From an uncultured bacterium (lineage in GTDB: Bacteria; Verrucomicrobiota; Verrucomicrobiia; Verrucomicrobiales; DEV007): a DNA stretch of 64,000 bases. The stretch's first letter is position 1, and each line of letters begins with the position of its first letter. The position numbers and the translations under genes are program-made. The stretch is taken from assembly GCA_963977015.1 (NCBI GenBank), contig CAXBMO010000020.1, positions 1 through 64,000 of the forward strand, written 5' to 3'. This document shows positions 8,778 to 55,780 of the stretch, one piece after another. The notes below the pieces were generated by a model that was not told the origin of the DNA, ran no database searches, and saw only the letters and a list, made by a program, of their open reading frames with translations.

Positions 8778-11243
8778 ATGAAAGCTTGGTCATCTGCAAC
8801 CCGTGTTTTCAGGAACGTGGAGATTCGATTGATCTTTAGCCTGATGCTCGGCATCACTTATGCGGCAATCCCGGCCAGCCCGGTCACCGCCAGTGCTGCT
8901 GACATCGACGAGACGTATCGGCAGGAAGTCCGGCCGCTTCTCGCCGAGCTTTGCTTCGAGTGTCATGGCGCCGAAAAACAAAAGGGCGACATCCGCTTCG
9001 ACACACGGAACCCCGATTTGACCGATCCAGCTGAGGTCGAGCTTTGGCACGACGCAATGGATCAGATCAACCTTGGCGAAATGCCGCCGCGCAAAGCCGG
9101 GCAACCCGATTCGGAGCAACGCAAGACGCTCGTTGCCTGGATGTCCAGCGCCTTGCGCCATGCCGCGGAAACCTCCCGCTACAACGAAGGACGCGTCGTC
9201 ACCCGCCGGCTGACCCGCTACGAATACGCCAATACGATGCGCGACCTGCTCGGTGTCGATCTTGACTTTGCCCGCGAAGTTCCCCCGGATCCCGCTTCTG
9301 CCGAAGGATTCGTCAACAACGGCGCGACGCTCGAAATGTCGCCAACCCAAATCGAAACTTACCTTTCCATTGCTCGAAAAGGGATGGCCGAAGCCATTGT
9401 CACTGGCGAGCGCCCCAAGCTTCATCAGTTTACCCAGGACCAAACGGCCAAGGGCAACCTGCCGAATCGCAAGGTGCAGGGCCACGTCGCCGTCAATCCC
9501 GAGTTTATTCTCGACCTCAAGCAATACCCTCGCGCTGGAGAATTCGAGGTGCGGGTGCAGGCACGAGCCGCGATTCCCAAGGGTCAGGACTTCCCCCGCA
9601 TTCAACTCACCCTCGGCCACGTTCCCGGCATCATTCACGTGCCGCGTGGCGAAATCGGATCGGCAGACGTCTCCACCGAGTCCCAGGTATTTACCTTTCG
9701 AGGCCGGATGGAAGACTTCCCGTTGCCTGGCCCCATCTCGTTCGGCAGCTCCGGCTTCAAAGGCATGATCGTGATGGTCGATTTCGTCGATGCGGACGGA
9801 AAGGAACTGCGTTACCCGGATCAACAATACGCGCGCAATCCCGCCAAGCCGAAAAAGGGCCAAAAACCGAAACCGCGTCCGACTCCCCCACCCTTTGGAT
9901 CGCGTCTCGACATCAAGATCGAGTCGATCGAGTTCGAAGCGCCTGTCTTCGCAAGCTGGCCGCCTCCGAGTCATCGGCAGCTCGTGGGTGACTCCAAGAA
10001 CCCAGACGCTCGCGAACTCCTGAAGTCGTTCATGACCCGCGCCTATCGACGTCCCGTGACTGCGGCGGAGTTGGATCGGCAAATGCGATTGTTCGCCACG
10101 TTGGAACAACGATCCGATTCGTTCGAAGCCGCGATTCGCGAAACGTTCGCCTCAGTCCTCGTCTCGCCGCATTTCCTTTACCGCGTCGAGTCCAGACCTG
10201 AGATCGCTGAAGCACGTGCCACACCCACCTCCCTTTCTCCCTATGAATTGGCTTCGCGACTCTCCTACTTTCTCTGGAGTTCGATGCCGGACGATCGCCT
10301 TTTTGAACTCGCCGCCTCCGGTCGCCTTCACGATCCCCAGGTTCTTGACGACGAGGTTTCGCGCATGCTCGCCGATCCCCGCGCCAAGCAATTTGCCGGC
10401 CACTTCACGGATCAATGGCTCGATCTCGAGGCCCTCGATCGCATCGCGGTCAATCCGGAGTTCTTCCCGAATTTCAACAACGCACTGAAAGACGACATGC
10501 GGACCGAAACCCACGCGGTGTTTGCCGAAATCCTCCACAGCGACGGAAGCGCACTTGACCTGCTCGACTCGGATTGGACGATGCTCAATCGCCCTCTCGC
10601 ACGGCACTACGGACTGGCAGGACCGCGTTCGTCCGCCTTCGAAATGGTCGCGCTCAATCCGGAGGATCACCGCGGCGGTCTTCTCACCCAAAGCGCCTTT
10701 CTTCTCGCCGCCTCCAATGGCGAAGACTCGCACCCCATCAAACGCGCCGTCTGGATTCTGGACCGTCTCCTCGACTCGCCTCCCGCGCCACCGCCACCGG
10801 ACGTTCCCGATCTCGACCCCGCGAACCCCGATCTCGCCGGGCTTAGCCTCAAAGATCAACTCGCCGTTCATCGCGAAAAGGAATCCTGCACCAGTTGCCA
10901 CGAAGGGATCGATCCGTGGGGCATCCCGTTGGAAAACTACGACGCCGTCGGCCGGTGGCGATCGCAGATCAAGGACGCTCCCGTTGATGCCGCCAGCACC
11001 CTTCCCAACGGCGAAACCATTGACGGCATTCGCGAACTCCAGGCTTTCCTCCTCAGCGATCGACGCGACTGGTTTGCCCGTTCCCTCGTCAAACGCCTCC
11101 TGAGCTACGCCCTTGGTCGTTCGCTCGATCTCGGCGATCGTCCCGTCGTCGAGACGCTGACCGAAGATTTCGTCGCCAGTGATTTCCGCCTGCAACGCCT
11201 CATCATCGACCTGGTGCAGAGCGAGGCTTTTCTCACGAAGTAG
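8778..11243 (+). CDS. DUF1592-type (PSD/Planctomycete cytochrome c) multidomain protein
   Basis: CFECH, MPP, RRLTRYEYANTMRDLLG, YELASRLSYFLWSSMPD, CTSCH...IDPWG, LLSYALGR; start may be downstream. Confidence 0.92.
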   Translation: MKAWSSATRVFRNVEIRLIFSLMLGITYAAIPASPVTASAADIDETYRQEVRPLLAELCFECHGAEKQKGDIRFDTRNPDLTDPAEVELWHDAMDQINLGEMPPRKAGQPDSEQRKTLVAWMSSALRHAAETSRYNEGRVVTRRLTRYEYANTMRDLLGVDLDFAREVPPDPASAEGFVNNGATLEMSPTQIETYLSIARKGMAEAIVTGERPKLHQFTQDQTAKGNLPNRKVQGHVAVNPEFILDLKQYPRAGEFEVRVQARAAIPKGQDFPRIQLTLGHVPGIIHVPRGEIGSADVSTESQVFTFRGRMEDFPLPGPISFGSSGFKGMIVMVDFVDADGKELRYPDQQYARNPAKPKKGQKPKPRPTPPPFGSRLDIKIESIEFEAPVFASWPPPSHRQLVGDSKNPDARELLKSFMTRAYRRPVTAAELDRQMRLFATLEQRSDSFEAAIRETFASVLVSPHFLYRVESRPEIAEARATPTSLSPYELASRLSYFLWSSMPDDRLFELAASGRLHDPQVLDDEVSRMLADPRAKQFAGHFTDQWLDLEALDRIAVNPEFFPNFNNALKDDMRTETHAVFAEILHSDGSALDLLDSDWTMLNRPLARHYGLAGPRSSAFEMVALNPEDHRGGLLTQSAFLLAASNGEDSHPIKRAVWILDRLLDSPPAPPPPDVPDLDPANPDLAGLSLKDQLAVHREKESCTSCHEGIDPWGIPLENYDAVGRWRSQIKDAPVDAASTLPNGETIDGIRELQAFLLSDRRDWFARSLVKRLLSYALGRSLDLGDRPVVETLTEDFVASDFRLQRLIIDLVQSEAFLTK

Positions 11244-11297
11244 TCCGGGCGCTTTTTCCGACATAAATCGCCCGATCACACCGTGTAAGAAGGAGAC

Positions 11298-36243: not shown

Positions 36244-38076
36244 CTACTGCAAGCCCTTCACGGGCATGAGCGATTTGTCGCGGTTCGCCTTGTTCACCAG
36301 AATTTGCTCCGCCGTGTGCCGCAGGAGTAATTCAGCGATTTTGACGGCTTCGCTGACACTGGATTTGTCCTCGGGATCAAATTTGGATTCCACATCCACA
36401 TCGTTAGGGAGTTTCTCATGATAACGAAGCTTCCCATTGGTGATCACCAGGAATCGCTTCACATCTCCCAACTTGTCGGCCGGGGGTTCCGGCGTCTTGA
36501 ACAAATGACCGTCATACGGACTGGTGGGATCATCGATGCGCCTCCCTTCAACAACCGAGGCGATTACTGCATCGAGATTTCCGTGATTTTCCGCGACGAA
36601 ATCGATTCCCGTCGAATGGGCGGCCGCGGCTACTGCAGCGACGCTTTGCGCATATCGGCGAGCTTGCAACGCTTCCTCAACATACAGGCGCCGTTCCAGC
36701 AGCCTGAGGCGCTCCGGACATTCGCTCGGGCTGACACTCATCAAATTCGTCGGCGGCTCCAACAGGTCAAAAACGTTGATGTCTGGAGAAGCTTGCTTGA
36801 GTTGGCCTCCTTCGATCTTCAAATAGGGAAGAACCCGCGCCTGTTCTTCGGTCGAAAGTCTGGGGCCATCGTTTTCCGCATCGCAGATCAACTTGATGGT
36901 CAGGGCCAGGTTTCCTCCGGCTTGTTCAACAAACGACGCGCCATTCTCGCCGGGAATTTTCCCAAGAAGCTCAACCTCAGCCGCAAGCTCTTCAGCAAAC
37001 AGGCGCTCCTTCAGCTGCTCCAGGGTGTTTACCCGGTGCACCAGCAGACGGCGAACCTCATCCAGGGTCGGCTCCGCGACTTTCGGGATTGTCGCTTCCA
37101 CTGGAGCGGAGGTGACCTTCACCGGTGGAATCGCACTAATCGGCGTATGTTTGAGAAGCTTTGGGTCCGGCTTGTTCTCCCCTTCGATCGGGTTCATCAC
37201 CGGATGAATGATAAAGCGTTGAATCCAGGCGCTCAATTGCTGACGCTCCGCCGGAAACTGATCCAGGACGACCAGAACGATGGTCGCCAGCAAACAAATC
37301 AGCGCCGGAATCCCGACGGCTGGAGAAATTTTCCGTTTGGAAGCACCGTCTGCCGACCAATCCATGGGAGCTTCGGTAACTGGAGTGGCCTTCGGTTGCT
37401 TTTCTTTTTCCTGGGCCGTGTCTGCAGCCTCATCTTCGACCTTGTCCTTCCCGAATTGGAGAAAACTGGGCTTGGAACCGGCATCTTTGGGCCGGGTCCG
37501 TTTCGTAAAGGCAGCGACAAAGCCTTTTGGACCAGGTTTCTCAGCGACGGGCTCGGGCTGAGGGGCTTCGGATGGTTCCAACGTTGCCTTTTCAGGAGGC
37601 GCCTCTTCGGCACTTGGAGAAGCCGGGTCCGGTCCCGATTCCGGCTTGGGCGGGTAACCAGGAACAGGATCTTTCGGATCTGAAACCGGCTCGGGTTGAG
37701 GCTGGGCCGACTCCGGTTGACTCTGACCCAATGCCGCGTTTAGCCCTGCTCCATCAATCAGTTGCAGAGGAACGGACTCCGCCGCCTGAAGCACAGCAGG
37801 ATCGAAATAGCTATTGGTGACAAACACCGCACTGTGCGCACCGGACTGACTCACCGCCCCCCAAAACGTATCAAGCTGCTGCATCTTGACCAATTGCGAC
37901 GGATCCGTCGCAAAACAACCAACCGCAACGTGCTGGGTGGGTTGTTGAGCCGGCGTCGCGATGAACGTGATCTCAACAGGAAGTCCGTCGGGCCGGCTGA
38001 GTTGGAATCCCGCCGAACTGTAGATTTGCGCAACCGTGTCGACCAAGCGCTGTGGCAGGTCGTTTTGGGTGGGCAT
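36244..38076 (-). CDS. Membrane protein: degenerate Mrr-like nuclease domain, Pro-rich linker, TM helix, duplicated C-terminal domain
   Basis: N-terminal AVFVTNSYF...LQLIDGAGL; TM GIPALICLLATIVLVVL; start at 38076 or 38100. Confidence 0.75.
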   Translation of the reverse strand: MPTQNDLPQRLVDTVAQIYSSAGFQLSRPDGLPVEITFIATPAQQPTQHVAVGCFATDPSQLVKMQQLDTFWGAVSQSGAHSAVFVTNSYFDPAVLQAAESVPLQLIDGAGLNAALGQSQPESAQPQPEPVSDPKDPVPGYPPKPESGPDPASPSAEEAPPEKATLEPSEAPQPEPVAEKPGPKGFVAAFTKRTRPKDAGSKPSFLQFGKDKVEDEAADTAQEKEKQPKATPVTEAPMDWSADGASKRKISPAVGIPALICLLATIVLVVLDQFPAERQQLSAWIQRFIIHPVMNPIEGENKPDPKLLKHTPISAIPPVKVTSAPVEATIPKVAEPTLDEVRRLLVHRVNTLEQLKERLFAEELAAEVELLGKIPGENGASFVEQAGGNLALTIKLICDAENDGPRLSTEEQARVLPYLKIEGGQLKQASPDINVFDLLEPPTNLMSVSPSECPERLRLLERRLYVEEALQARRYAQSVAAVAAAAHSTGIDFVAENHGNLDAVIASVVEGRRIDDPTSPYDGHLFKTPEPPADKLGDVKRFLVITNGKLRYHEKLPNDVDVESKFDPEDKSSVSEAVKIAELLLRHTAEQILVNKANRDKSLMPVKGLQ

Positions 38077-38228
38077 CGGCTCGGCGTTTTGGGAATACAC
38101 GGAGCGAAGGTTACCACAAGTGAATATTTCTTAAACCCATTTATTTCGGAAAAGTTAACTTACTTTGCGCGTACTTTACCGTCGCTAGATTCGAACACTG
38201 GCGTTCCAAACCTGTCTGAACGCTTTAT

Positions 38229-39566
38229 ATGGCCACTTTGAAGCCTCTCTCCCGCCGCACTTTACTTCGTGGACTCGGAGTCACCATGTCGTTGCCACTT
38301 CTGGAAGCGATGGGCCCTGTGCATTCCTTTGCTGCGTCCAGTTCCACCAAGTCGCCGCTTCGCATGGGATTCGTGTATCTCCCGAACGGCGTGATCATGA
38401 ATCAATGGACGCCGAACCAAGAGGGCTCGAGCTTTGAGTTGCCCAACACGCTCAAACCGCTCAACCCGCTTAAAAGCCAGCTTCAGGTTCTCAGTGGCCT
38501 CGATCATGACAAGGCCAAGAACAATGGTGACGGTGGTGGCGATCATGCCCGGGCAAACGCCACCTTTTTAACCGGCTGCCAAGCCAAGAAGACCGCTGGT
38601 GCGGATATTCGCATCGGGGTTTCGGTCGATCAGGTCGCCGCAGCAAGGATTTCCGGCCAAACGCGAGTCGATTCCCTCCAGCTGGGCTGTGATGTCGGTC
38701 GAAAAGCCGGTCGCTGCGACTCGGGCTACAGTTGCGCCTACCAGTTCAATTTCTCCTGGAAGACCGAGAATCTGCCGATGCCTCCGGAGATCGATCCTCG
38801 CGTCGTCTTCGAAAAGCTCTTCGGCAGCGGCATTTTGGGCGACGTGAAAAAGAACCAGGCGGTGCGCGCGAAATACCAAAAGAGTATTCTGGATTTTGTG
38901 CGCGAAGACGCCCTCGCCCTTCAATCGAAACTCGGGCATACGGATCGCGCCAAGTTGGACGAATACATGACCGGGGTTCGCGAGTTGGAACGCCAGATTG
39001 AGCACGCTGAGAAGTTTACCAAGCAGCTTCCTGACCTGAACGCGCCAACCGGGATCCCGAGCGAGTTCAAGGAACACATTCGACTGATGTATGACCTCAT
39101 GGCGATGGCCTTTCAGACCGACACCACGCGGGTGGCGACGTTTTTGGTCGCCCACGACGGAAGCAACCGCAGCTTCCGCGACATTGGCGTAGGTGAGGGC
39201 CACCACTATCTATCCCATCACCGGGATGAGAAATCGAAGATCGAGAAGCTGGCGAAAATCGACAGGTTCTACACCGAACAATTCGCGTATTTTCTTCAGA
39301 AGCTCGCCGGAATGCGCGAAGAAGGAGGCTCGGTGCTCGATCACTCCATGATCGTCTTCGGCGGAGGCCACAGCGACGGGAATCGCCACGATCACGAAAA
39401 TCTGCCCGTGATTCTCGCCGGAAAAGGAAACGGAACGCTGCAAACCGGGCGTCACGTCAATCACCAGAGCAAACCGATGAACAACCTGTTCCTGACGATG
39501 CTCGACAACTTTGGAACCCCGGTCGATCGGCTTGGCGACAGCACCGGCCGCCTGAGTAACGTCTAG
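38229..39566 (+). CDS. DUF1552 (HXXSHH) family protein
   Basis: SRRTLLRGLG, GYSCAY, KSILDFV, HHYLSHH, LGDSTG. Confidence 0.93.
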   Translation: MATLKPLSRRTLLRGLGVTMSLPLLEAMGPVHSFAASSSTKSPLRMGFVYLPNGVIMNQWTPNQEGSSFELPNTLKPLNPLKSQLQVLSGLDHDKAKNNGDGGGDHARANATFLTGCQAKKTAGADIRIGVSVDQVAAARISGQTRVDSLQLGCDVGRKAGRCDSGYSCAYQFNFSWKTENLPMPPEIDPRVVFEKLFGSGILGDVKKNQAVRAKYQKSILDFVREDALALQSKLGHTDRAKLDEYMTGVRELERQIEHAEKFTKQLPDLNAPTGIPSEFKEHIRLMYDLMAMAFQTDTTRVATFLVAHDGSNRSFRDIGVGEGHHYLSHHRDEKSKIEKLAKIDRFYTEQFAYFLQKLAGMREEGGSVLDHSMIVFGGGHSDGNRHDHENLPVILAGKGNGTLQTGRHVNHQSKPMNNLFLTMLDNFGTPVDRLGDSTGRLSNV

Positions 39567-39580
39567 CCTGGACTCGAGAA

Positions 39581-41203
39581 CTACGAGTCCTTCAGCAGCG
39601 CCATGGCGCGCTGAATATTTTTCTCGCGGTTGTCCAGAATCTTGGTTCTCGCCCAGCGGTAATTCGTCGCCGCCATGATTTCCGGAATGGCGGTGTCGGC
39701 TGCGATATCGCCCAGAATCTGCTCATAGGGAACCGGACCAACCGGGCGGTAGGCTCCGGAATAAAAGTAACCGTGAACGACACTGGCAAGAGCTCGCGCC
39801 TCCCGTTCGCCATTCCCTTTGATTCCTGGGTACTCGAACAGAGAGCGATAGAGCTCGCGGTTTCCGTCCGTCCGCACCACGCGATTTTTCAGGGTCGCCA
39901 AGTAACGGGTAAACGCGCGAAGGTTTTCGATCAACGGCATCGGCTGGTTCCAAACCGGCGCTTCGTCACCGATCCAGAATCGAATTTTGTCCGGTAAAGG
40001 CAAGAGCCCGCGTTCGCCTTCACTGTGAATGTGAAACGGATCCACCCTCCCCCTCCGGTTCAGCCCCATCTCCGCATAAAACACGACCCAAACCTCTTCG
40101 AGCGTCAACTTGAGAAGATCCATCCCATCATTCTGGGCATCTCGCCATTGATTGGTCTCGGTGATGAGAGCTTCGAGAGCCACACGGTTTTGCGAAAAGA
40201 ACTGCGCTTTGGTCAGGTCTTCATACACGAAATGGATTCCGGCAACTTGGTCGGCCGGATGCGAGCGCTCAACCTCTGTGGTTAGGGTCTCGGTTGGACG
40301 AACCGTGCTGATCGAGATCGCGTAATCATCGATCGCCGACGCATAAGCCGCGGCCAACTCGTCTTTCCGATCCATTCCCAACTTCATTTCGCGGTCGTTG
40401 CTCATGAAGAACGGCTCCACAATCACGGCCGGCGCTTTGGTGTTCGCAATCAGGGTCCATCCTCGACCGCCGGAAAGCGGTTTCAGCCCGCGATCCCGCA
40501 GGCCCAAGGCCTTTAAAACCTCGTCCTGCAACAAGGACGCCAACCGTTCCCCATTGCGAGAGCGGTGATGGTACAACATCTCGGTACCACTCGCTCCCAC
40601 CGTAAAGTTGCAGTGGAGACTCACAATAAAATCCGGATCCAGGCTGTTGAGTTTGGCCGGCAACCGCGTGAGACCATCCGAAACATCATCCCGGAAGACG
40701 ATCTCGACATCGGCATGCTTCACTCGCTCGGCAACGCGTTTCGCAATATCGCTGTTGTAGCCCCACTCTGTAACCTTGTATCGCTCGCTCTTCGCACCTT
40801 GAGAACTTTTGCGGTGCCCAACCACAAGCGCCACCAAAGGCTTCGGTGAACTCGGAACCACGTCGGTTGCCTCAGGTTCCGGTTCAGCCGGCCCAATCAC
40901 CTCTTCCAGAATCTCCAGCACCCGCTCTTCCAGATCCTTCCGGTCAATGTGGCCGGCATCCAAATACCGCTGAAGCAATTGGGACGTAATTGCCGGGAGC
41001 AACTCGATAATCAATGCGTCGTAGAGAACGCCATCTTCCAGGGTTCCGGTCAGAACCGCGAATTGATCCAACTCAACAGCTTCCTGAAAAGGGTGATCCT
41101 CCGGGCGTTCCCCGGTAATCGCTCTGGTCAGCGTGATGGAACCATCAGCAGTGAGAAATTCTTGAGATCCGGTAAAGCGACCAACAACGATGTCTGATTT
41201 CAT
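39581..41203 (-). CDS. N-acetylmuramoyl-L-alanine amidase (Amidase_3) with extra N- and C-terminal domains
   Basis: LVVGH...TEW, SLHCN, GTEMLY, AVIVEPFFMSN Zn/catalytic motifs. Confidence 0.85.
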   Translation of the reverse strand: MKSDIVVGRFTGSQEFLTADGSITLTRAITGERPEDHPFQEAVELDQFAVLTGTLEDGVLYDALIIELLPAITSQLLQRYLDAGHIDRKDLEERVLEILEEVIGPAEPEPEATDVVPSSPKPLVALVVGHRKSSQGAKSERYKVTEWGYNSDIAKRVAERVKHADVEIVFRDDVSDGLTRLPAKLNSLDPDFIVSLHCNFTVGASGTEMLYHHRSRNGERLASLLQDEVLKALGLRDRGLKPLSGGRGWTLIANTKAPAVIVEPFFMSNDREMKLGMDRKDELAAAYASAIDDYAISISTVRPTETLTTEVERSHPADQVAGIHFVYEDLTKAQFFSQNRVALEALITETNQWRDAQNDGMDLLKLTLEEVWVVFYAEMGLNRRGRVDPFHIHSEGERGLLPLPDKIRFWIGDEAPVWNQPMPLIENLRAFTRYLATLKNRVVRTDGNRELYRSLFEYPGIKGNGEREARALASVVHGYFYSGAYRPVGPVPYEQILGDIAADTAIPEIMAATNYRWARTKILDNREKNIQRAMALLKDS

Positions 41204-41255
41204 GGGCGGAAAGCGTGGTCGCCGAATTTGGGCCACGCCTACTGGCGACGCAAGC

Positions 41256-42209
41256 TCAATGCTGAGCGTAGAATGCCCGTTTCCCCTTCTTCGGCGGCGG
41301 ATCGATGTTGATTGCGATCCAAGTGAAGAACAATGCGGCGATGATGCTTCCCACCATCGGAAGGAAAATCCCGGGAATTCCGATCAGGAGAGGCGCGAAA
41401 AGATACAAAATGACGACCTGGCTTCCGGGGGCCGGATCATACGGATCTTCGAAGGTGCGAAGCTTCACTCTGGCCAATTGAAGTCCCAAAATCGTAAAGA
41501 AACCGCCGGCAGTGATCAAATTGATGAACAGGAGCAACGACGCAAATCCTCCCCAGAACCCGGGTTTCTCGATCGCAACGACCGCAAAGATGGTCGCCGG
41601 AATCATGGTGCTCCCAAGCACGAAAACTGCGGCAAGAATCAGCGAAACGCGGCCGAGATAATTCCGGTAGGCCGACGCACCAATGACCATCGCGCAAAAC
41701 ACGGCGTTGTTCAGCAACAAGGCCGCACCAATCATCAAATGCTCGACCAATTCAAACCCGCCGAAAAAGTAACGAAGAAACAGGTAGGGAAGAATCGAAA
41801 CGAAAACGAGGAGGCTCAGCGCGACTGAGAAGACCCATTTTCCCCGGACAATTTGCCAGCGGCTCAACCCGCTCAGCAGAAGCAGCTCCGCGTTTCTCCC
41901 GGAAAACTCCTGCTGCAGATCGAAAAACCGCGTCGCGGGAATCACGAACAGCATCATGAAGTAGGCAACCCCCCAATAAATAAGGCCGTAGCGAATCAGG
42001 TTGTCATCGGCGCCGGCAAAGGTGCTCGATCCCGAGGCCATGTCTGTCACGATAAAGTATTCCAACGCACAGGCCGCCACCATGACGATGTGGATGGCAA
42101 TAAAAGGGACGACGAACTTTCTTGCCCTCAAACCCTGGCGAAGTTCCTTCACCGTCATCGGGTGAATCCGCTCCGAAAAATCGGCGAACTTGGCTTCAGA
42201 GAAGAGCAT
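41256..42209 (-). CDS. ABC-2-type permease-like membrane protein
   Basis: PMTVKELRQGLR, ELLLLSGLSRWQIVRGKW, multiple TM helices. Confidence 0.8.
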   Translation of the reverse strand: MLFSEAKFADFSERIHPMTVKELRQGLRARKFVVPFIAIHIVMVAACALEYFIVTDMASGSSTFAGADDNLIRYGLIYWGVAYFMMLFVIPATRFFDLQQEFSGRNAELLLLSGLSRWQIVRGKWVFSVALSLLVFVSILPYLFLRYFFGGFELVEHLMIGAALLLNNAVFCAMVIGASAYRNYLGRVSLILAAVFVLGSTMIPATIFAVVAIEKPGFWGGFASLLLFINLITAGGFFTILGLQLARVKLRTFEDPYDPAPGSQVVILYLFAPLLIGIPGIFLPMVGSIIAALFFTWIAINIDPPPKKGKRAFYAQH

Positions 42210-42318
42210 GACCCATCGGATTTAGAGAAATGCTTGATTGAAGTAAAGCATCGATCCGGGGAACTGTCCGAGATCTTAGACTCTTCACTTTCATACTCAT
42301 CCGCGAGCGGAGAAAAGA

Positions 42319-42392
42319 TCGGGGAGACAGGATTCGAACCTGCGACATCCTGCTCCCAAAGCAGGCACTCTACCAAGCTGAGTTACTCCCCG
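42319..42392 (-). tRNA. tRNA-Pro (TGG), CCA not encoded
   Basis: Reverse complement CGGGGAG-TA-ACTC-AGCTTGGTA-GAGT-G-CCTGC-TTTGGGA-GCAGG-ATGTC-GCAGG-TTCGAAT-CCTGT-CTCCCCG-A folds as a cloverleaf. Confidence 0.97.
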
Positions 42393-42531
42393 ATATGAGT
42401 TACTCGCGAGGCGTGACTGTGCCTTGGAAAGTACAAAGTGCAAGGCTCAAATTTTCATAAATGTAAAGTTTTTCTTGATAATTAGGATTTCTTAAGGTTT
42501 ATAGAGATTATGTTACGTTAGGAAATTTATT

Positions 42532-45500
42532 GTGTCTGCCTATCCTCAATCCATTCTCTCCGGAATCCTTGCCCTTATCCTGGCGGGATCCGCCATGGCC
42601 CAGCAAGATGACGGGCCACCCGCAACTGTGGCTCCCGATGCCACCTCCGGAGAAACATCGCCCCCCGAGAAGAAAGACACAGCCGGTCAAACGGAAGAAA
42701 AAGCCGATTCTCCCGCGATGGACGCTCCCGGGAACCGCACCACACTGTTCCCTCCCCTCGATCAAACCCAGAAAATGCGGGAAAAGGTCGAGTCCGGCAG
42801 TTTGCGGGAAGATGTGGGACTCCCCACTCCCGAAGGAGGAGAAACAAAAATCCTCGCAATCGTCAGGGACGGGGACTCCTGGTATTTCGATAGTCTGGTG
42901 GAGGAATTCATCTTTCAGCTCGAGGAGCTGGCAGTTGGGAACTATGGGCTGGAGATCTATGAGGCGAATGCCGAATACGATCCCGAAGTCGTGCGGGAAT
43001 TGCTCGCTCAGGCGCTGGAAAACCCAAGTGTGGATTTGATTTATGCCGCCGGAATCGTTGCTACGGAAATCGCGGCGAAAATGCCGGATGTAGATCGCCG
43101 CGTTCCGATCATGGCGGGAGCCGTTCGATTTTCGGATTTGCGCGGACTGCGCATTTCTCCTGAGGGAACGTCCGCGATTCCAAACCTGACGTTCATTACC
43201 AATCCCCAGCGTGTTTCTGAAGATCTCCGAATGCTGAGAGACCTTACCAAAACCAAAAAAATCCACGGGTTGATTGATGCCTATGCGCTCAGCGACATGC
43301 CGGGGCTTGAGAGCGCAAAACTCCAGGCGGAGAAGGCACTCGGAGTTTCCCTGGAAATCATTGGCAGCAAAATGACGGCCAAAGACACGCTTGACGCCAT
43401 TCCCAAAAACGTCAGCGACGTTTACGTAACCATTTTGCCAAGCCTGGACATCTTTGAACGCGAAGACCTCTTCGTCGGCTTAGCTGAACGGAACATTCGC
43501 ACCATCTCAATGCTCGGAGAATCAGACGTTGAAATTGGAGCAATGGCGGCATTGGCACCCGACAATTCGGAATCGGTCGCCCGGCGCACTGCGGTGAACG
43601 CTCACCAGCTTCTGCAAGGTGTCTCGACCGAACTGCTCCCGGTCTATCTACCGGTCGAGGACAATCTCGTCATCAACATGGAAACAGCCGACGCGGTGGA
43701 ATGGTCGCCTGACTATGAGACTGTCCTAACCGCCCAGTTCGTCAACGAAGACAGCGGCGAGACCGGAGATTCCATCGACGTTTCCAAAGCAATGGCGAAA
43801 GCCGCCAAACGGAATGCGCAAGTCCGCACCACAGCCGAGGACGAAGCGATTGCCCAACAAGACGTCTACATCACCCGGAGCAATCGACGTCCGCAAATTT
43901 CGCTCGAGGGAAACCATGGAAGGCAGGATCTCGCGGATTCCTACCTGGATTTTCCGGGAGCGACGCTCGCTACTCCCACCGGAGATTTCACGCTTCCCAG
44001 CTTCGACCTGTCGGGAAGCTCGTTCCAGGGCGAATACGGGGTCCAAGTCCGCAAAGTCCTGTTCAACGATGAGATCCGGAGTGGCGTCAAAGCTGGTAAA
44101 GAAGCGGTCATCTCCAATCGACTGGAAACCCGATCGGTGCAACTGGATGCGATGGAGGACGCCGCAATTGCCTACTTCAATTACCTCAGCGCCGACAATC
44201 TCTACGAAATTGAAAAGGAGAACCTGCGCCTCACCGAAAACAACCTTCAGCTCGCCAAACTGCGGATCGAGATTGGGTCCGCAGAACCTTCCGAGCGCTA
44301 CCGATGGGAACAGGACGTCGCCCGAAGCCGGGCACGCCTCTTTCAGCGGGATTCGGACCGCGCCGACGCCCTCGTTGAATTCAACCGGATCCTGGGTGAA
44401 CCTCGTGGGAAGAAATGGGATTTCGAGGACTACGAAGTTGGGGACGACGAGTTCTTCTTCATGGATGACGACCTGGGACCACTGATCGAAAACATCCGGG
44501 ACTTTAAGAAATTCAGCCTCTTTCTCCAGTCACTCGCCGTCGTGAATTCTCCGGAACTTCGCGCCTTCGAACACAGTCTCGCCGCACAAGGCATCCTGCT
44601 CGAAAAAAATCGACGCAGCTTCTTCGTTCCTGAGGTTACCGGGTTCGTCAGTCAAAACCGCACCGTTCTTGGCAGTTCTTCCCTCTCTGATCATCTCAGC
44701 CAACATGAATCCACCGTCGGTTTTCAGTTCAGCCTCCCCCTCTTCGAAGGTGGACGCCGAACCGCTGAGGTCGAACGTCAACGCGCCGTTATCCGTCAAC
44801 TGGCCGCCCAACGTGAGAACGCGCTCGAACTGATCGAGCAACGCACCTATGCCGCAGTTCACGGCATTTCGGCGGCGCATCCAAACATCCGTTTCAGTCG
44901 ACTCGGCCTTGAAGCATCAGAAAAGACGTATGAGTCGGTGCAGGAAAAATACTCACAGGGTGCAGCCAGTATCTTGGATTTGTTGGATGCCCAATCCGCC
45001 CTTCTTACCCAACGGCAGCAGGCTGCGATTGCGACCTACTCCTATCTTCAACAGATTCACCGCCTGCAACGATCCATCGCCTGGTTCGAACACGAAAAGA
45101 GCGCGAGCGAGAAAGAGGAATGGACGGATGCCCTGAAGAGCTACCTCGACGATGGCAACCTCGGCGACTTCAAATTTTCTCCCGGCGTCAGCGTTCCTTC
45201 CAGTCCGGATTGGGAAGAGGCAATTGTCGCCTCGAAGAGCAAAACAAAGTCCAAGAAGAGTCGGAAGTTCAGACCTTCCGATGACGATTCCAGTGACAGC
45301 AGTGAGACGGATAGCGAAAGCGTTGAACTCGGAGAAAGCGGCTTCGAATTCGTGGAGTATGAGATTATCGAAGCTGACGACAGTCCCGAAGACCAGGTGG
45401 AAACGGCAACCGGCGATCCCGAAACCGAGACGGAGCTTGAATCGCTTCCCGGAACCGAGACGCCCGAACGAGATCGCCGTTCCAGATTGGGCCATCGCAA

Positions 45501-45774
45501 TTCAGGATCGTTTTCACCATCATCCGAACAGGAACCGATCGAGTTGAGTGAAAGTTTTACCCGGGTTCGCTCCGCGCTTGGTCGTTCCGACGTTGCTTCT
45601 GCACCGGAAACAACACCTGAAATCGGGAAGCCATCCAAGCTCGTCCCCGTTGTTGAGATTTCCCCGCCGTCGCCAAGTGTTCCCGTCGCCACTGACAACG
45701 TTCCCAAACATACTGCGACACCCCAAAAGCCAAAAGGACGGCGCATTGGCGCGATCGTGCGCAGACGCAGATAG
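42532..45774 (+). CDS. TolC-family outer-membrane factor fused to an N-terminal ABC-type substrate-binding domain, with a long acidic tail
   Basis: Signal peptide; N-half with NLVINMETADA; C-half with RIEIGSAEPSE, FSLPLFEGG, YSQGAASILDLLDAQ; S/E/D/P-rich tail. Confidence 0.85.
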   Translation: MSAYPQSILSGILALILAGSAMAQQDDGPPATVAPDATSGETSPPEKKDTAGQTEEKADSPAMDAPGNRTTLFPPLDQTQKMREKVESGSLREDVGLPTPEGGETKILAIVRDGDSWYFDSLVEEFIFQLEELAVGNYGLEIYEANAEYDPEVVRELLAQALENPSVDLIYAAGIVATEIAAKMPDVDRRVPIMAGAVRFSDLRGLRISPEGTSAIPNLTFITNPQRVSEDLRMLRDLTKTKKIHGLIDAYALSDMPGLESAKLQAEKALGVSLEIIGSKMTAKDTLDAIPKNVSDVYVTILPSLDIFEREDLFVGLAERNIRTISMLGESDVEIGAMAALAPDNSESVARRTAVNAHQLLQGVSTELLPVYLPVEDNLVINMETADAVEWSPDYETVLTAQFVNEDSGETGDSIDVSKAMAKAAKRNAQVRTTAEDEAIAQQDVYITRSNRRPQISLEGNHGRQDLADSYLDFPGATLATPTGDFTLPSFDLSGSSFQGEYGVQVRKVLFNDEIRSGVKAGKEAVISNRLETRSVQLDAMEDAAIAYFNYLSADNLYEIEKENLRLTENNLQLAKLRIEIGSAEPSERYRWEQDVARSRARLFQRDSDRADALVEFNRILGEPRGKKWDFEDYEVGDDEFFFMDDDLGPLIENIRDFKKFSLFLQSLAVVNSPELRAFEHSLAAQGILLEKNRRSFFVPEVTGFVSQNRTVLGSSSLSDHLSQHESTVGFQFSLPLFEGGRRTAEVERQRAVIRQLAAQRENALELIEQRTYAAVHGISAAHPNIRFSRLGLEASEKTYESVQEKYSQGAASILDLLDAQSALLTQRQQAAIATYSYLQQIHRLQRSIAWFEHEKSASEKEEWTDALKSYLDDGNLGDFKFSPGVSVPSSPDWEEAIVASKSKTKSKKSRKFRPSDDDSSDSSETDSESVELGESGFEFVEYEIIEADDSPEDQVETATGDPETETELESLPGTETPERDRRSRLGHRNSGSFSPSSEQEPIELSESFTRVRSALGRSDVASAPETTPEIGKPSKLVPVVEISPPSPSVPVATDNVPKHTATPQKPKGRRIGAIVRRRR

Positions 45775-45813
45775 TTTTGTCTTTGAATCCGCCTCACTTT
45801 CTCCGAACACGCC

Positions 45814-46860
45814 ATGAGCCATCCCTTCCACTTCACTATTTCCTGGTTTGCGGTTCCGTGCATCGCAATGGTTTTCGCTGGATGCGGCAAGCCTGAACCC
45901 ATCGCTCCCCAAAAGCCACGCCCCGTTTACACGATCGAAGTTGAAGCGCCGGAATCGACCATCCGGCGATCATTCTCCGGCCTGGTCAATTCTGCCGAAG
46001 GAGTTGGAATTGCGTTCGAAGTCGGAGGTCGAGTCATCGATGTCTACGCGGAGGAGGGTGTGCGTTACAAGAAGGACACAATTCTCGCGAAGATCGACGA
46101 CACGGAATACCGAAATCAGATGGTCGGAGCGGAAGCCCAACTGACCGAAGCGATCCAAAATCTCCGCCGGACTCAGCAACTGTTCGAGACCGGGAACGCT
46201 GCCCAGGGAGCCCTCGAGACCTCGATCGCGCAGGAGAAGGCAGCACGCTCCAACTACAACAGCGCCCAAAAACGGGTTCAAGATTCCGTCCTCAAAATGC
46301 CCTACGATGGCGTCATTGGTGAAGTCAACATCGATGCCCAGCAAGTGGTGAGCACCGGCCAAACCGCCATGACGATTCAGGGAGAATCCGGGCTCGAGTT
46401 TGAGATCGGCGTTCCCGCCGAGGTGGTCGCAAGCATCAAACCGGAACAATCTGCCGTCATCGAGTTGGGCACACTTCCCGACAAACAGTTTCCCGCCAAA
46501 ATTGTAACGGTTTCTCCTCAGCCAGGCGCGAACACGACCTATCCCGTAACGCTGGAGATTGAAGAGGCCGACGATCGAATTCGCGAAGGAATGGACGGTG
46601 AAGCCATTCTGACACTCACGAACCCGGACGGCGCTCTCACCAACATTCCGGCCGTTTGCGTCGTCGCGGAACCCGGAGATTCACAGTTCGTCTGGGTTTT
46701 CAACGAAGGCCAGGTTTCGAAGCGCACGGTGAAGACTGGTCGCCTTCGCGATAACGGCATGATCGAGATTGTTGAAGGACTCGAAAAAGGGGAGACGGTC
46801 ATCTCCAGAGGAGTGCATCGACTTCGCGAAGGACAAACCGTGCGTCTCCTGGAGCAGTAA
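45814..46860 (+). CDS. RND efflux periplasmic adaptor (MFP), lipoprotein
   Basis: Lipobox FAGC; AFEVGGRV, LKMPYDGVI, TYPV, GLEKGETVISRG. Confidence 0.93.
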   Translation: MSHPFHFTISWFAVPCIAMVFAGCGKPEPIAPQKPRPVYTIEVEAPESTIRRSFSGLVNSAEGVGIAFEVGGRVIDVYAEEGVRYKKDTILAKIDDTEYRNQMVGAEAQLTEAIQNLRRTQQLFETGNAAQGALETSIAQEKAARSNYNSAQKRVQDSVLKMPYDGVIGEVNIDAQQVVSTGQTAMTIQGESGLEFEIGVPAEVVASIKPEQSAVIELGTLPDKQFPAKIVTVSPQPGANTTYPVTLEIEEADDRIREGMDGEAILTLTNPDGALTNIPAVCVVAEPGDSQFVWVFNEGQVSKRTVKTGRLRDNGMIEIVEGLEKGETVISRGVHRLREGQTVRLLEQ

Positions 46861-46861
46861 C

Positions 46862-49800
46862 ATGAATCCGGCAGCCTTCACCCTTAAGAACAACCGCACC
46901 GCCCTGGTCATCTATGGGGCGACGCTCTTGTTTGGAGCCGCGACGTTCCTCTCGATCAGCCGTCTCGAATATCCCGAGTTCACGATCCGCAACGCCCAGA
47001 TCATCACCCAGTATCCTGGCCGAACCACCGTTCAGGTTGAACAGGAAGTCACCGAACCGATCGAGCAAAAACTGCGGCAAATGCCGGAAATGTTGGAGAT
47101 CAAGTCGACCTCCAAACCAGGGCTTTCCATCATCACGGTCGAGATCCGCGATGAGTTCTTCGACATGGAAGACATCTGGACCGACATGCGAAATCGCATC
47201 AGTGAAGTCCGACTCCCCCAGGGTGCTCAGGAGCCGACAGTCAACGATGATTTTGGCGATGTCTTTCCCTATATTTACGCCCTGACGAGCGACGGCTTCA
47301 GCTACCGCGAAATGCTTGATCACGCCGAGGATATCCGTGACGCGCTTCTCGCCATCGATGGAGTCGGCAAGGTGGAGTTCCACGGCGAACAGGAAGAACG
47401 CATCTATCTGGAATTTTCGAGTAGCGAAGTCGCGGCCTATGGTGCCTCGCCGACGCGAATCGCCGGGGTCATCAACAATCAGAACGCAGTCTCCACCAGT
47501 GGAGACGTTCAGTTTGGTCCGGAACGCATCAATCTGATCACCCTGGGTGAGTTCGAAAATCTGGACGAGCTCAAGAGTTACCGCCTGACCATTCCGGGAG
47601 AAGCCACCAGTGTCCAGGTCTCCGATCTCTTTAATGTTCAGCGCAGCTATCAGGATCCGCCAAGATCGATCACTCACTTCAATGGCGAACGGGTAATCTG
47701 CATTGCGGTCTCCATGCTCGACGGAGGGGTCGTGACCAAAATCGGCGACGCGATCGAGATGAAGCTCGCCGCCCTGCAACAAGAACTTCCCGTTGGGCTC
47801 GATATAGAGTCCATGTTCTTTCAACCGGAATACGTCGCCAAGTCGGTGAACGATTTCGTCGTCAATCTCGGCCAGGCTTTCTTTTTCGTCGTCATCGTCA
47901 TGCTCCTCTTCGCTGGTTGGAGGATCTCAATCATTGTCGGCATCCTGGTTCCTTCCGCCATTCTCATCGCGTTCGCGTTAATGCCCTCCCTGGGGATCGC
48001 GCTGGAGACCATGTCGATCGCCGCCCTGATCATCGCGCTTGGTCTCCTCGTCGATAACGCCGTCGTCGTCAGTGAACAGATCCTGGTTCGTCTCAACGCC
48101 GGTCAGTCACGGTTTGAAGCGGTCACGGAGTCGGTGCGAACCCTGACCATTCCACTTCTTGCCGCCAGCGGAACAACGATTGCCGCCTTCTCCACCATCG
48201 CCCTGGCATCCGGCCAAACCGCGGAGTTCACCTACAGCCTTTTCGCCGTTGTTTCGCTGACATTGCTGGGTAGCTGGATCCTTTCGATCACCATCATTCC
48301 GCTCTTTTCGTTCTACTTTCTCAAAGAGTTGAAACGCGACACGCTGATCGGACGCGGGCTCAACCGCCTCTACGATCCCTACGAGCGCATGCTGCGCTTT
48401 CTCCTCAAGCTCAAATGGGCCTACCCAATCCTCATTCTGGTCCTGACGCTTGGCGCGGGGATGCTGTTCGGGAAGGTGCCGAGCATCTTCTTTCCACCGA
48501 ATGAGCGGGGCCAGTTCGTGATCGAATTCGAACTTCCGCTTGGAACCGACATTTCCGAGACCGAGGCCAGGGTCGCCGAGTTGGAATCCTATCTCCTTTC
48601 GGAAGAACGCGATCAGATTCGACGTGTGTCGACCTGGATTGGGGATGGCGGACCGCGTTGGTATCTCAGCTTGTCGCCCGAACCTCCGAATTCAGGCTAC
48701 GCCTTCTTTTCGGTCCTGACCCATTCGAATGACCCCAAGTCCATTCAACGGATGATCAATCGCATTCATCAGTTTGCCGAGAATCAGGATCCCAATGTCC
48801 GCGTGGTCGCCCGGACGTTGGAGAATGGTCCTCCGGTAGGCGACCCGATCCAAATTCGCCTCTACGGACCGGACATGGAGACTCTCTACAAGCTTCGGGA
48901 CGAGATCATCCCTGAAGTGGAAGCCGTCCCCGGAATGTTCGATGTGCGGGATAGTTGGGGATCCTGGGTGAAACAAATTAGCGTGGATCCGGATCCCGTG
49001 CGATCCGTCCGCCTCGGTCTCACGACGAACAGCATCTCCGAAAGTCTCAATCTGCAGTTCAGCGGTCTCAATTTTTCGACCTTCCAAGAGGATGAAGAAG
49101 CGATCCCGATGGTGATGCGTTCCAAGGAGGATTTTCGGGAAAACCCGGATCGCATCGCTGACCTACCCATCTTTATCAGCAGCGGAACGGTCCCCCTTGG
49201 CCAAGTCGCCGACACCAGCGTGGATTTTCTTCCCGGATCCATCAAGCGCGAAGACACGATTCGCATGATGACCATCAAAGGCCGCGTCCGCGATCGATTT
49301 TCCAGTGAAGCGCTGGCCGAGGTCCAGCCTCGGATCGCCAAGTTGGTCGAAGGCGAAAACTGGCCGATCGGCTACTGGATTGAGTACGGCGGGGAACAGG
49401 AGGAGAGCGCCAAATCTCAGAAGTCCATTGGAAGCGCCATGCCCATCTCCTTGACGATTCTATCGCTCATCCTGATTGGTCAGTTCAACAGCCTGCGACG
49501 TTTTGCCATCATTCTCCTGACGATTCCACCAATGCTAATCGGCGTCGTCCCCGGACTGCTGATCACGGGATCTTCCTTCGGCTTCATGACGCTCCTCGGC
49601 ATGATTGCGCTTCTTGGGATCATCGTGAACAACGCCATCCTTCTCATCGACGAAACCGACCATCAAATCGATGAAGGATTGGAGCTGGAAGAGGCGATTG
49701 TTGAGGCCGCAAAATCGCGGCTCCGCCCGATCATCATGACCACGATCACGACCATTATTGGTCTCCTGCCCCTGGCCATCAGCGGTGGCGGAATGTGGAG

Positions 49801-49912
49801 TTCGATGGCCTATGCGATGATGTTCGGTCTGGGCTTCGCCACCCTGCTCACCCTGGCACTTTGCCCGGTCCTGTTCTTCCTCTTTTTCAACCAGAAGGAA
49901 AAGACCGCCTAA
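46862..49912 (+). CDS. RND efflux permease (AcrB/AcrD/AcrF family)
   Basis: VEQEVTEPIE, ALGLLVDNAVVVSE, GIIVNNAILL, RLRPIIMTT; ~1016 aa. Confidence 0.95.
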   Translation: MNPAAFTLKNNRTALVIYGATLLFGAATFLSISRLEYPEFTIRNAQIITQYPGRTTVQVEQEVTEPIEQKLRQMPEMLEIKSTSKPGLSIITVEIRDEFFDMEDIWTDMRNRISEVRLPQGAQEPTVNDDFGDVFPYIYALTSDGFSYREMLDHAEDIRDALLAIDGVGKVEFHGEQEERIYLEFSSSEVAAYGASPTRIAGVINNQNAVSTSGDVQFGPERINLITLGEFENLDELKSYRLTIPGEATSVQVSDLFNVQRSYQDPPRSITHFNGERVICIAVSMLDGGVVTKIGDAIEMKLAALQQELPVGLDIESMFFQPEYVAKSVNDFVVNLGQAFFFVVIVMLLFAGWRISIIVGILVPSAILIAFALMPSLGIALETMSIAALIIALGLLVDNAVVVSEQILVRLNAGQSRFEAVTESVRTLTIPLLAASGTTIAAFSTIALASGQTAEFTYSLFAVVSLTLLGSWILSITIIPLFSFYFLKELKRDTLIGRGLNRLYDPYERMLRFLLKLKWAYPILILVLTLGAGMLFGKVPSIFFPPNERGQFVIEFELPLGTDISETEARVAELESYLLSEERDQIRRVSTWIGDGGPRWYLSLSPEPPNSGYAFFSVLTHSNDPKSIQRMINRIHQFAENQDPNVRVVARTLENGPPVGDPIQIRLYGPDMETLYKLRDEIIPEVEAVPGMFDVRDSWGSWVKQISVDPDPVRSVRLGLTTNSISESLNLQFSGLNFSTFQEDEEAIPMVMRSKEDFRENPDRIADLPIFISSGTVPLGQVADTSVDFLPGSIKREDTIRMMTIKGRVRDRFSSEALAEVQPRIAKLVEGENWPIGYWIEYGGEQEESAKSQKSIGSAMPISLTILSLILIGQFNSLRRFAIILLTIPPMLIGVVPGLLITGSSFGFMTLLGMIALLGIIVNNAILLIDETDHQIDEGLELEEAIVEAAKSRLRPIIMTTITTIIGLLPLAISGGGMWSSMAYAMMFGLGFATLLTLALCPVLFFLFFNQKEKTA

Positions 49913-55142: not shown

Positions 55143-55721
55143 ATGATCGACGATCTCTTCAGCACCTTACGACGTCGTTACCATCTGCGGCACTGGACCT
55201 GGCAAGGTGCCAAATTCCCACCCTGTCCCGAATGGTTGGAGAATGACGACCTGAAGGTCTTTTTCACCCGCGGCCCAAAGGTTCTCCGCAATGGTCAACT
55301 GACCTGGGGCATTGTCGTCCTCGCCGATCGCCATCTGCATGATCCCAAGGACCCGCGAGATGGCGTTGCCGAGATGCTCTATGCAACGCGCGGAGGCGCA
55401 GCAACGTCCATCGAGCACCTGCTCGGAGTTCGAGCCCGACTCCAGGAACTCGCCGGCAACAGCGAACCGGAAACGGACCCTTCGCACAGTTCCGAACGCA
55501 TGTTCGGCGAGGTTTTGCCGGATTGGATCGCCCAGGGAACGCCTTGTGCCGTCAGCACCACTTACGTCATTCGAAACCATTTGCCGGGTCGTCGCCTCGC
55601 CGACTACGTCGTTCCGATTCTCATGAGCCAGAACGACCCCAAAGTCGTGGCGATTCTCCCCGTGTATTTTTGGCCGAAGTATTTTGTCGCTCAGTGGCTG
55701 AATCTTCCCCGGGGGAGCTGA
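55143..55721 (+). CDS. Hypothetical protein
   Basis: 192-aa ORF in operon-like spacing; no motif recognised. Confidence 0.65.
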   Translation: MIDDLFSTLRRRYHLRHWTWQGAKFPPCPEWLENDDLKVFFTRGPKVLRNGQLTWGIVVLADRHLHDPKDPRDGVAEMLYATRGGAATSIEHLLGVRARLQELAGNSEPETDPSHSSERMFGEVLPDWIAQGTPCAVSTTYVIRNHLPGRRLADYVVPILMSQNDPKVVAILPVYFWPKYFVAQWLNLPRGS

Positions 55722-55780
55722 AAAGAGTTTTTTGCCGGATTTTGATCAAAGTAAGGCGTTGTCGGTCTGAGATCTGCAAC

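Follow-up and report, generated by a model that had tools for sequence, protein, structure and literature searches.

How does the fold of a restriction nuclease come to share one membrane protein with the heads of pilins, and what might such a protein do? The question is raised by a single gene in a 64,000-nucleotide stretch of DNA (positions 1 to 64,000 of contig CAXBMO010000020.1, GenBank assembly GCA_963977015.1; hereafter the window) from an uncultured bacterium of the order Verrucomicrobiales (DEV007). A preliminary description of this DNA had placed the gene at 36244..38076, which is a real open reading frame (ORF) that starts at an internal ATG. The N-termini of homologues align to a longer form of 618 amino acids (aa) beginning at GTG 38100, and the upstream DNA in related loci aligns as far as the same codon, so that GTG 38100 is the likelier start. 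The whole fusion gene is therefore taken as one intact ORF at 36244..38100 on the minus strand, with its stop codon at 36244-36246, and residue numbers below count from ATG 38076, the first codon of the 610-aa form termed P0001. Its product is, by its predicted topology, a bitopic inner-membrane protein composed of a catalytically dead Mrr domain, a linker, a transmembrane helix, a spacer and tandem pilin-like heads.

The N-terminal domain (residues 8-114; 37735..38055, minus strand), predicted to be cytoplasmic, is by profile and alignment evidence a true Mrr_cat homologue of the PD-(D/E)xK type with a family-wide loss of catalytic residues. Pfam Mrr_cat (PF04471) matches it with an E-value of 2.2e-8; the score of 34.6 bits exceeds the cut-off of 21, and the match spans profile positions 6-113 of 115. 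The genome scan gives Mrr_cat at 37735-38055 with 36.3 bits. NA-iREase1 (PF22722) also matches P0001, under its cut-off of 27 bits (E 0.0028, 18.1 bits), and Mrr_cat_2 is weaker than that. An Atlas model of residues 2-123 reaches template modelling (TM) scores of 0.79-0.82 by query to ten Mrr_cat clusters, all of them predicted models. A sequence search of the PDB with P0001 or with a nine-sequence profile returned low-complexity noise only and no solved relative of this domain.

Catalytic residues were judged by aligning P0077, the sole other Mrr_cat gene of the source genome (58.7 bits, D...ExK intact), with 16 proteins that join an Mrr domain to a pilin-like head. Compared with the active P0077, P0001 carries T at the D position and G-C-F at ExK. 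The (E/Q)xK motif is missing in all 16, with G-C-[FYVIM] at this site in the close family, and the catalytic D is missing in 13, being retained in P0020, P0053 and P0056. The acidic residue that P0001 has two positions upstream of the D site is not kept by the family, and none of the 11 positions of the domain that are invariant among the nine full-length members is charged. Lacking D and (E/Q)xK, the domain cannot cleave DNA by the catalytic mechanism of the family. Both the Mrr_cat pattern over the first ~115 aa and the loss of its catalytic residues had been recognised in the preliminary description, and the alignment of homologues as well as the modelled PD-(D/E)xK fold bear them out. A separate observation concerns a Bacillota cluster of 364-aa proteins in the Atlas: all of them (100%) carry Mrr_cat, 94% carry NA-iREase1 and 48% T2SSE, possibly an independent link of Mrr-like domains to type II/IV secretion-type ATPases.

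Residues 115-252 (37321..37734, minus strand) form a low-complexity linker rich in Pro, Ala, Glu and Lys, delimited by composition, low identity and alignment gaps. Its residues 116-250 consist of 19% P, 13% A, 11% E and 11% K, the mean pairwise identity is 0.22, and the length differs among homologues. The linker leads into a single transmembrane helix (residues 253-271; 37264..37320, minus strand), assigned by hydropathy, charge bias and modelling: it is the sole hydrophobic segment over threshold in P0001 (Kyte-Doolittle, KD, 2.87) and is helical in the AlphaFold2 (AF2) model. In 9/9 members the K and R residues among the 15 positions before the helix (3-7) are at least as numerous as those after it (1-3), and this charge bias, together with the absence of an N-terminal signal sequence, predicts an N-in/C-out topology. 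Next comes a juxtamembrane segment (residues 272-299; 37180..37263, minus strand) conserved in the closest homologues, F274 P275 E277 R278 ... P292 V293 N295 P296 G299 being invariant in five close sequences; over all nine members, residues 253-299 have a mean identity of just 0.26. A periplasmic spacer (residues 300-335; 37072..37179, minus strand) follows, which is predicted to be disordered from its low predicted local distance difference test (pLDDT) values, <50 at model residues 45-82, and its mean identity of 0.18.

The ectodomain beyond the spacer is, as far as profile comparison can tell, two tandem copies of a domain of ~80 aa. Copy 1, a long helix with a degenerate pilin-head-like part, occupies residues 336-430 (36787..37071, minus strand) and was located by hhalign, fragments of hidden Markov model (HMM) matches and a BLASTP segment; copy 2, a helix with a pilin-head-like part, occupies residues 450-552 with an HMM core at 472-552 (36421..36729, minus strand) and was located by BLASTP, a pilin-only HMM, AF2 and the Atlas. 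Direct BLASTP between the two halves found no match (E 15), where comparison of profiles from nine members succeeded: hhalign aligned the two regions over 77 columns with 96.5% probability and an E-value of 8.8e-10. The AF2 model of residues 250-610 (mean pLDDT 74.8, predicted TM score, pTM, 0.63) was built from five sequences. After the disordered spacer it has two units that each end in small helices and a beta-hairpin, the first led by a long helix and the second by a helix pair, and it closes with a long C-terminal helix at model residues 322-351. This last helix and the tail (residues 571-610; 36247..36366, minus strand) were delimited by conservation, alignments and the model, and residues 576-608 have the highest mean pairwise identity of nine protein regions, 0.51.

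From where do the repeats derive? By sequence they are homologous to the heads of verrucomicrobial prepilins. In the source genome, the second match lies on contig C9 and is a 130-aa ORF, P0006, that bears the prepilin N_methyl signature (PF07963, E 6.8e-7; TIGR02532 above its cut-off). BLASTP aligned residues 473-554 of P0001 with residues 49-128 of P0006 at 34% identity over 82 aa (E 3e-12), and a second segment joined the end of copy 1 to P0006 (E 0.012). Besides P0001, this genome holds four small head-bearing ORFs (contigs C9, C1 twice, and C6). In a complete cluster resembling those of type IV pili or type II secretion systems (T2SS), at L010 5539-16957 of contig C9, T2SSF is followed by four prepilin genes, and P0006 heads this series. 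Judged by the Pfam families of its ORFs, the cluster encodes a secretin and a PilT-like ATPase, together with four ORFs without a Pfam family above cut-off, T2SSF, the four prepilins, a 721-aa T2SSE and a response regulator. In P0001, N_methyl (PF07963/TIGR02532) had no match at E <= 1 in either Pfam or NCBIfam.

An exhaustive profile search with the C-terminal part against 1.84 billion representatives (E <= 0.001) widened this picture to 70 matches. Nine of them span the whole ectodomain, and in nearly all of the rest the best match falls on copy 2 (~80 residues); most of the latter are proteins of 93-197 aa. Pfam, run on 67 of the 70, found N_methyl in 21 and Mrr_cat in 11 above the cut-offs, with Mrr_cat in P0053 below it. 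An HMM built solely from 38 small proteins scored 75.5 bits on copy 2 of P0001; on copy 1 it gave two collinear fragments, 405-426 (9.4 bits) and 379-398 (not significant), with ~18 residues missing between them. Copy 1 scores higher in distant relatives (25.6 bits in P0009, 39-55 bits in P0018, P0020, P0025 and P0040); the duplication is thus old, and copy 1 decayed in the branch of P0001. Neither the repeat segments nor the prepilin heads had a match in Pfam, and NCBIfam matched the prepilins in their N-termini only.

Structure comparison was less telling. The AF2 model of the single head (residues 445-560, 41 sequences, pLDDT 88.9) opens with a long helix; two short helices come next, and beyond a loop there is one more helix and then a beta-hairpin. 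Foldseek against the PDB, with the model of the whole ectodomain and with that of the single head, returned nothing at E <= 0.001. VIA-align wide placed the pilin PilA4 (6xxd_A) first for the head, with Z 4.3, a root-mean-square deviation of 4.0 and 89 aligned residues, and its top 50 also contained FimU (Z 3.5), PilJ (3.2) and EpsH (2.9), all of these below the trust level of the tool; for the whole ectodomain, it returned generic helical-bundle rows only, the best at Z 5.6. In the Atlas, the first structural match of residues 445-558 was a cluster of 139-aa proteins named 'putative type II secretion system protein' (TM score 0.64 by target), which has N_methyl in 41% of its members and Verrucomicrobiota as its commonest phylum. 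Because no match to a solved pilin reached the trust level, the pilin assignment rests on homology to N_methyl-bearing proteins. Much of this layout had been outlined in the preliminary description: the linker and one transmembrane helix stand as drawn there, the relatedness of the two outside repeats is confirmed by the profile comparison, and the likeness to verrucomicrobial pilin-like proteins, suggested there, turned out right by sequence (P0006, pilin-only HMM) with no PDB counterpart from Foldseek.

The same architecture recurs beyond the source genome, a point on which the preliminary description had made its reading depend: the exhaustive search contains ~16 representatives that join a dead Mrr domain to a pilin-like head, and the fusion occurs in at least five genomes of the order. 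Homologues over the whole ectodomain that carry the dead Mrr domain are P0002, P0005, P0075 and P0009-P0013; P0003 and P0008 are cut at the N-terminus. P0004 is a C-terminal half; the N-terminal half of the gene is encoded apart from it, as an ORF in a different frame (L006 9186..9860 and 9998..11056). This orthologue belongs to genome G727 of the same genus; the break of L006 9186-11056 into two ORFs in different frames falls within a Gln-rich linker and is either an assembly error or a real disruption.

More distant relatives follow the same plan at different sizes. P0018 has 571 aa, and P0020, P0025 and P0040 (about 950-1040 aa) have two strong head copies and an extra C-terminal region, while a single clear head copy is present in each of P0056 (273 aa), P0053 and P0019. 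In P0056, P0053, P0019, P0037 and P0044 a transmembrane helix resembling pilin alpha1N stands directly before the head and the cleavage motif is absent; to judge from their sequences, these simple relatives look like whole pilins without a prepilin cleavage site. Very large relatives were also seen (P0015, 1604 aa; L039), having ~700 aa of cytoplasmic coiled coil, one transmembrane helix and two head copies. In P0015 the long coiled coil replaces the Mrr domain, so the tandem-head ectodomain pairs with other cytoplasmic modules too. A further side finding is a 553-aa ORF at L041 94-1755 (plus strand), a sulfatase (residues 26-357) with a C-terminal head at residues 472-548 (69.9 bits).

All cluster members bearing organism names are Verrucomicrobiota or Verrucomicrobiales metagenome-assembled genomes. 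When 401 genomes sampled across the phylum were searched with the C-terminal query, the source genome (G000) alone gave a full-length protein, and one pilin was matched besides; the head profile found matches in five genomes. In a sample of 401 genomes of the order, full-length proteins were found, among the matches listed, in G000, G613, G688 and G703 and a split one in G727, all five belonging to one family; 162/401 genomes had some match at E <= 1e-5, and most of the matches listed lie at head positions in open frames of ~130-200 aa.

Do the neighbours of the gene reveal its role? Upstream of it, across an intergenic region (38101..38228) that is partly conserved near the gene start in five loci, lies a divergent DUF1552 (HXXSHH) gene with a twin-arginine-type N-terminus (38229..39566, plus strand; Pfam E 2.7e-107). 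This head-to-head pair is present in 5/5 loci with known upstream DNA (the window, G613, G727, G688 and G703); by synteny, the DUF1552 genes of the other loci are at L006 7728-9065, L007 7792-9126, L053 10181-11560 and L054 2-1177. DUF1552 is the only neighbour kept across the five loci; in the flanking DNA retrieved for G727, G688 and G703, no other resemblance to the window was seen. However, an orthologue of this DUF1552 gene is present in 309/401 genomes of the order (E <= 1e-120) against five with the fusion gene, and its neighbours are different in three genomes that lack the fusion gene. Since DUF1552 is so widespread without the fusion gene, the pairing is confined to a subclade and argues only weakly for a functional link. 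No operator-like inverted repeat was conserved across the five intergenic regions, and a complex prediction for residues 272-610 with the DUF1552 protein scored 0.00 in two runs without controls, which is not evidence either way.

The DUF1552 gene beside the fusion gene has no adjoining partner of the DUF1592 family. As a side observation, the window also contains, at 8778-12608 and 55523-59340, two co-directional pairs of a DUF1592-family gene (PSD/PSCyt domains) and a DUF1552 gene, unlike the solitary one here. Downstream of the fusion gene are a DUF7133/HEAT/cytochrome c protein and then a sulfatase, and the neighbourhood is housekeeping or metabolic and not a defence island. Beyond DUF1552, the block at 39581-49912, which is syntenic with G613 only, encodes an amidase_3 protein and a multi-pass membrane protein assigned to no Pfam family; it also has the gene for an outer-membrane efflux protein, after which come HlyD-like and AcrB-like genes. 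PADLOC gave no match for P0001, P0020, P0056, P0019 or the DUF1552 protein. The G+C content of the window is 52-61% with no compositional break at the fusion gene, a promoter and terminator scan near its start found nothing above chance, and the six sequencing runs listed for the gene (three studies) are all DNA, with no RNA run listed.

What, then, could the protein be for? We give about an even chance to a non-enzymatic trans-envelope adaptor or sensor, in which the heads would bind a periplasmic partner and the dead nuclease fold would be a binding module. The partner of the pilin-derived heads would most plausibly be cognate pilins, a pilus or a pseudopilus, because elsewhere the domain is mostly a pilin head and the simple relatives look like whole uncleavable pilins. 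On the cytoplasmic side, the nuclease fold may bind nucleic acid, a nucleotide or a protein. Parts of PMC12839542 describe inactive restriction endonuclease (REase) domains as non-enzymatic sensors of nucleotides or nucleic acids, including in immunity, and in our own searches Mrr_cat lacking D and K is also fused, in the same order, to bactofilin, another polymer-forming domain. With no prepilin leader and with the N-terminus held in the cytoplasm, the heads would not be processed or polymerised in the manner of pilins. The simple relatives, in which a pilin-type transmembrane helix and head appear to have had the leader replaced by the dead nuclease domain, suggest that the family arose as membrane-locked pilin mimics. 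That the proteins are such uncleavable mimics today, plugging into or reading a type IV filament machine from the periplasm and coupling it to cytoplasmic DNA, nucleotide or protein, is a more tentative step that we regard as possible rather than probable; if true, they might act as a pilus stopper or anchor, or as a sensor of pilus state with the nuclease fold as output.

Several observations weigh against the adaptor or sensor and its tie to pili. The 64-kb window and the flanks of the four other loci contain no pilus or T2SS genes (T2SSE, T2SSF, secretin, prepilin), the transmembrane helix of P0001 is no longer pilin-like, its copy 1 is degenerate, and neither Foldseek nor VIA-align gave the head model a significant match among solved pilins. 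Both AF2 models are predictions, that of residues 250-610 having had only five sequences, and the fold of the N-terminal domain is drawn from the profile match and the Atlas model. The head on the L041 sulfatase further implies that this domain may be a general periplasmic binding module and not one for docking to a pilus. The preliminary description had proposed a trans-envelope sensor or DNA-uptake accessory linked to pili or T2SS. Its structural half is supported by the Mrr-derived N-domain, the predicted topology and the pilin-like heads; the pilus or T2SS link is not, no such genes flanking the fusion gene in five loci.

Other explanations account for parts of the same evidence. A one-component regulator in the manner of ToxR, whose dead nuclease fold would bind DNA sequence-specifically and control the transcription of, for example, DUF1552, and whose pilin-like ectodomain would sense a ligand unrelated to any pilus, has in its favour the order of parts known from ToxR/CadC-type regulators (N-terminal cytoplasmic domain, one transmembrane helix, periplasmic domain), the DUF1552 gene head-to-head in every one of the five loci when 3/4 of the other loci share nothing else with the window, and the occurrence of the head on a sulfatase, hence its use outside pilins. 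However, the intergenic regions lack a conserved operator-like inverted repeat, DUF1552 is found in far more genomes of the order (309/401) than the fusion (five) and with other neighbours in the three examined without it, DUF1552 is missing beside more distant fusion proteins (L046), and a 135-aa disordered linker together with an N-domain devoid of conserved charged residues does not point to a specific DNA reader. We consider such a regulator unlikely. The label 'restriction endonuclease', which public annotation gives to the homologues, would in turn make the protein an active Mrr-type nuclease; the Pfam match above cut-off is what this has to offer, and with (E/Q)xK absent from 16/16 proteins, D lost in P0001 and no invariant charged residue in the N-domain, it is scarcely credible.

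The union of pilin-derived and nuclease-derived modules in one protein also brings natural transformation to mind, with the heads at an uptake pilus and the dead nuclease holding incoming DNA on the cytoplasmic side, and a type IV pilus-like cluster that includes a PilT-like ATPase is present in the source genome. Yet DNA binding by the N-domain is hypothetical, the fusion family is confined to a few genera when pilins are widespread in the order, and no competence genes adjoin the fusion gene, although ComEC and ComEA were not searched for; a competence accessory thus appears quite improbable. A sensor for anti-phage defence or other conflict, in which the inactive REase would detect invading nucleic acid as in NACHT/STAND or BREX-related systems and the pilin mimic would serve as decoy or sensor for pilus-binding phages, could appeal to the weak NA-iREase1 match (E 0.0028, 18.1 bits) and to the immunity sensors with inactive REases treated in parts of PMC12839542. 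But that score is below the 27-bit cut-off, there is no NTPase or effector domain, PADLOC is blank for P0001, P0020, P0056 and P0019, and the neighbourhood is housekeeping or metabolic, which leaves this option very improbable. The non-enzymatic trans-envelope adaptor or sensor is the likeliest of these readings.

As for novelty, no paper on fusions of Mrr or inactive REase domains with pilins was found in a literature search that was thin on subscription journals, and in PMC5615132 a term search of the main text found DUF1552, pilin and pilus all absent. The two building blocks are of known kinds, but no description seems to exist of their combination or of the head domain itself. The ~80-aa pilin-head domain defined here had no match among Pfam or NCBIfam models in the scans made, and the loss of catalytic residues corrects the public label of the homologues. 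What is understood of type IV filament systems comes chiefly from Proteobacteria and Firmicutes, and to our knowledge the pilins of these groups are always cleavable precursors with a short leader. The present family shows pilin heads, and in its simple members whole pilin bodies, permanently joined to a cytoplasmic domain. Should members of the family touch the pilus machine, they would represent a new kind of accessory (an anchor, terminator or sensor), and they would also be an example of a restriction-nuclease fold put to non-catalytic use at the membrane.

How does the protein compare with systems already known? With the type IV Mrr restriction endonucleases it shares the Mrr_cat (PF04471) profile match over the whole domain and a predicted fold at a TM score of about 0.80, whereas the family differs from them in lacking (E/Q)xK, in its long disordered linker, which ties the domain to the membrane, and in its periplasmic fusion partner. 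The inactive REases of conflict systems (NA-iREase1, and the iREase of BREX-related helicases) are likewise Mrr-like folds without catalytic residues, proposed as sensors in parts of PMC12839542. Unlike NA-iREase1 systems, P0001 stays below the cut-off of that model (18.1 vs 27 bits) and has no NTPase domain in the protein or its neighbours and no defence context. The small pilins of Verrucomicrobiales such as P0006 have a homologous head, and the helix before the head of P0001 aligns with pilin alpha1C. In contrast to P0006, however, P0001 has no N_methyl leader or cleavage site, carries two tandem heads and a 250-aa cytoplasmic part, has no assembly genes alongside, and its transmembrane helix is not pilin-like and stands ~60 residues before the first helix.

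Bitopic regulators of the ToxR/CadC/TcpP type are oriented N-in, their N-terminal domain lying in the cytoplasm and their C-terminal sensor in the periplasm; P0001 shares this predicted topology but has no winged-helix domain. GspL/PilN/PilO-type proteins have a cytoplasmic part, one transmembrane helix, a periplasmic helix and small alpha/beta domains, a general plan similar to that of P0001, which nevertheless has no Pfam or NCBIfam match to them and has an ectodomain homologous to pilin heads instead. The fusions of Mrr_cat with bactofilin (L056 922-1851, L060 856-2160, L062 615-1679; also L061 and L063) are, unlike P0001, cytoplasmic proteins with a Zn-ribbon, a bactofilin domain (PF04519 above cut-off) and no transmembrane helix, their Mrr_cat scoring 29-63 bits; what they have in common with P0001 is an N-terminal Mrr_cat domain without D and K followed by a polymer-forming domain.

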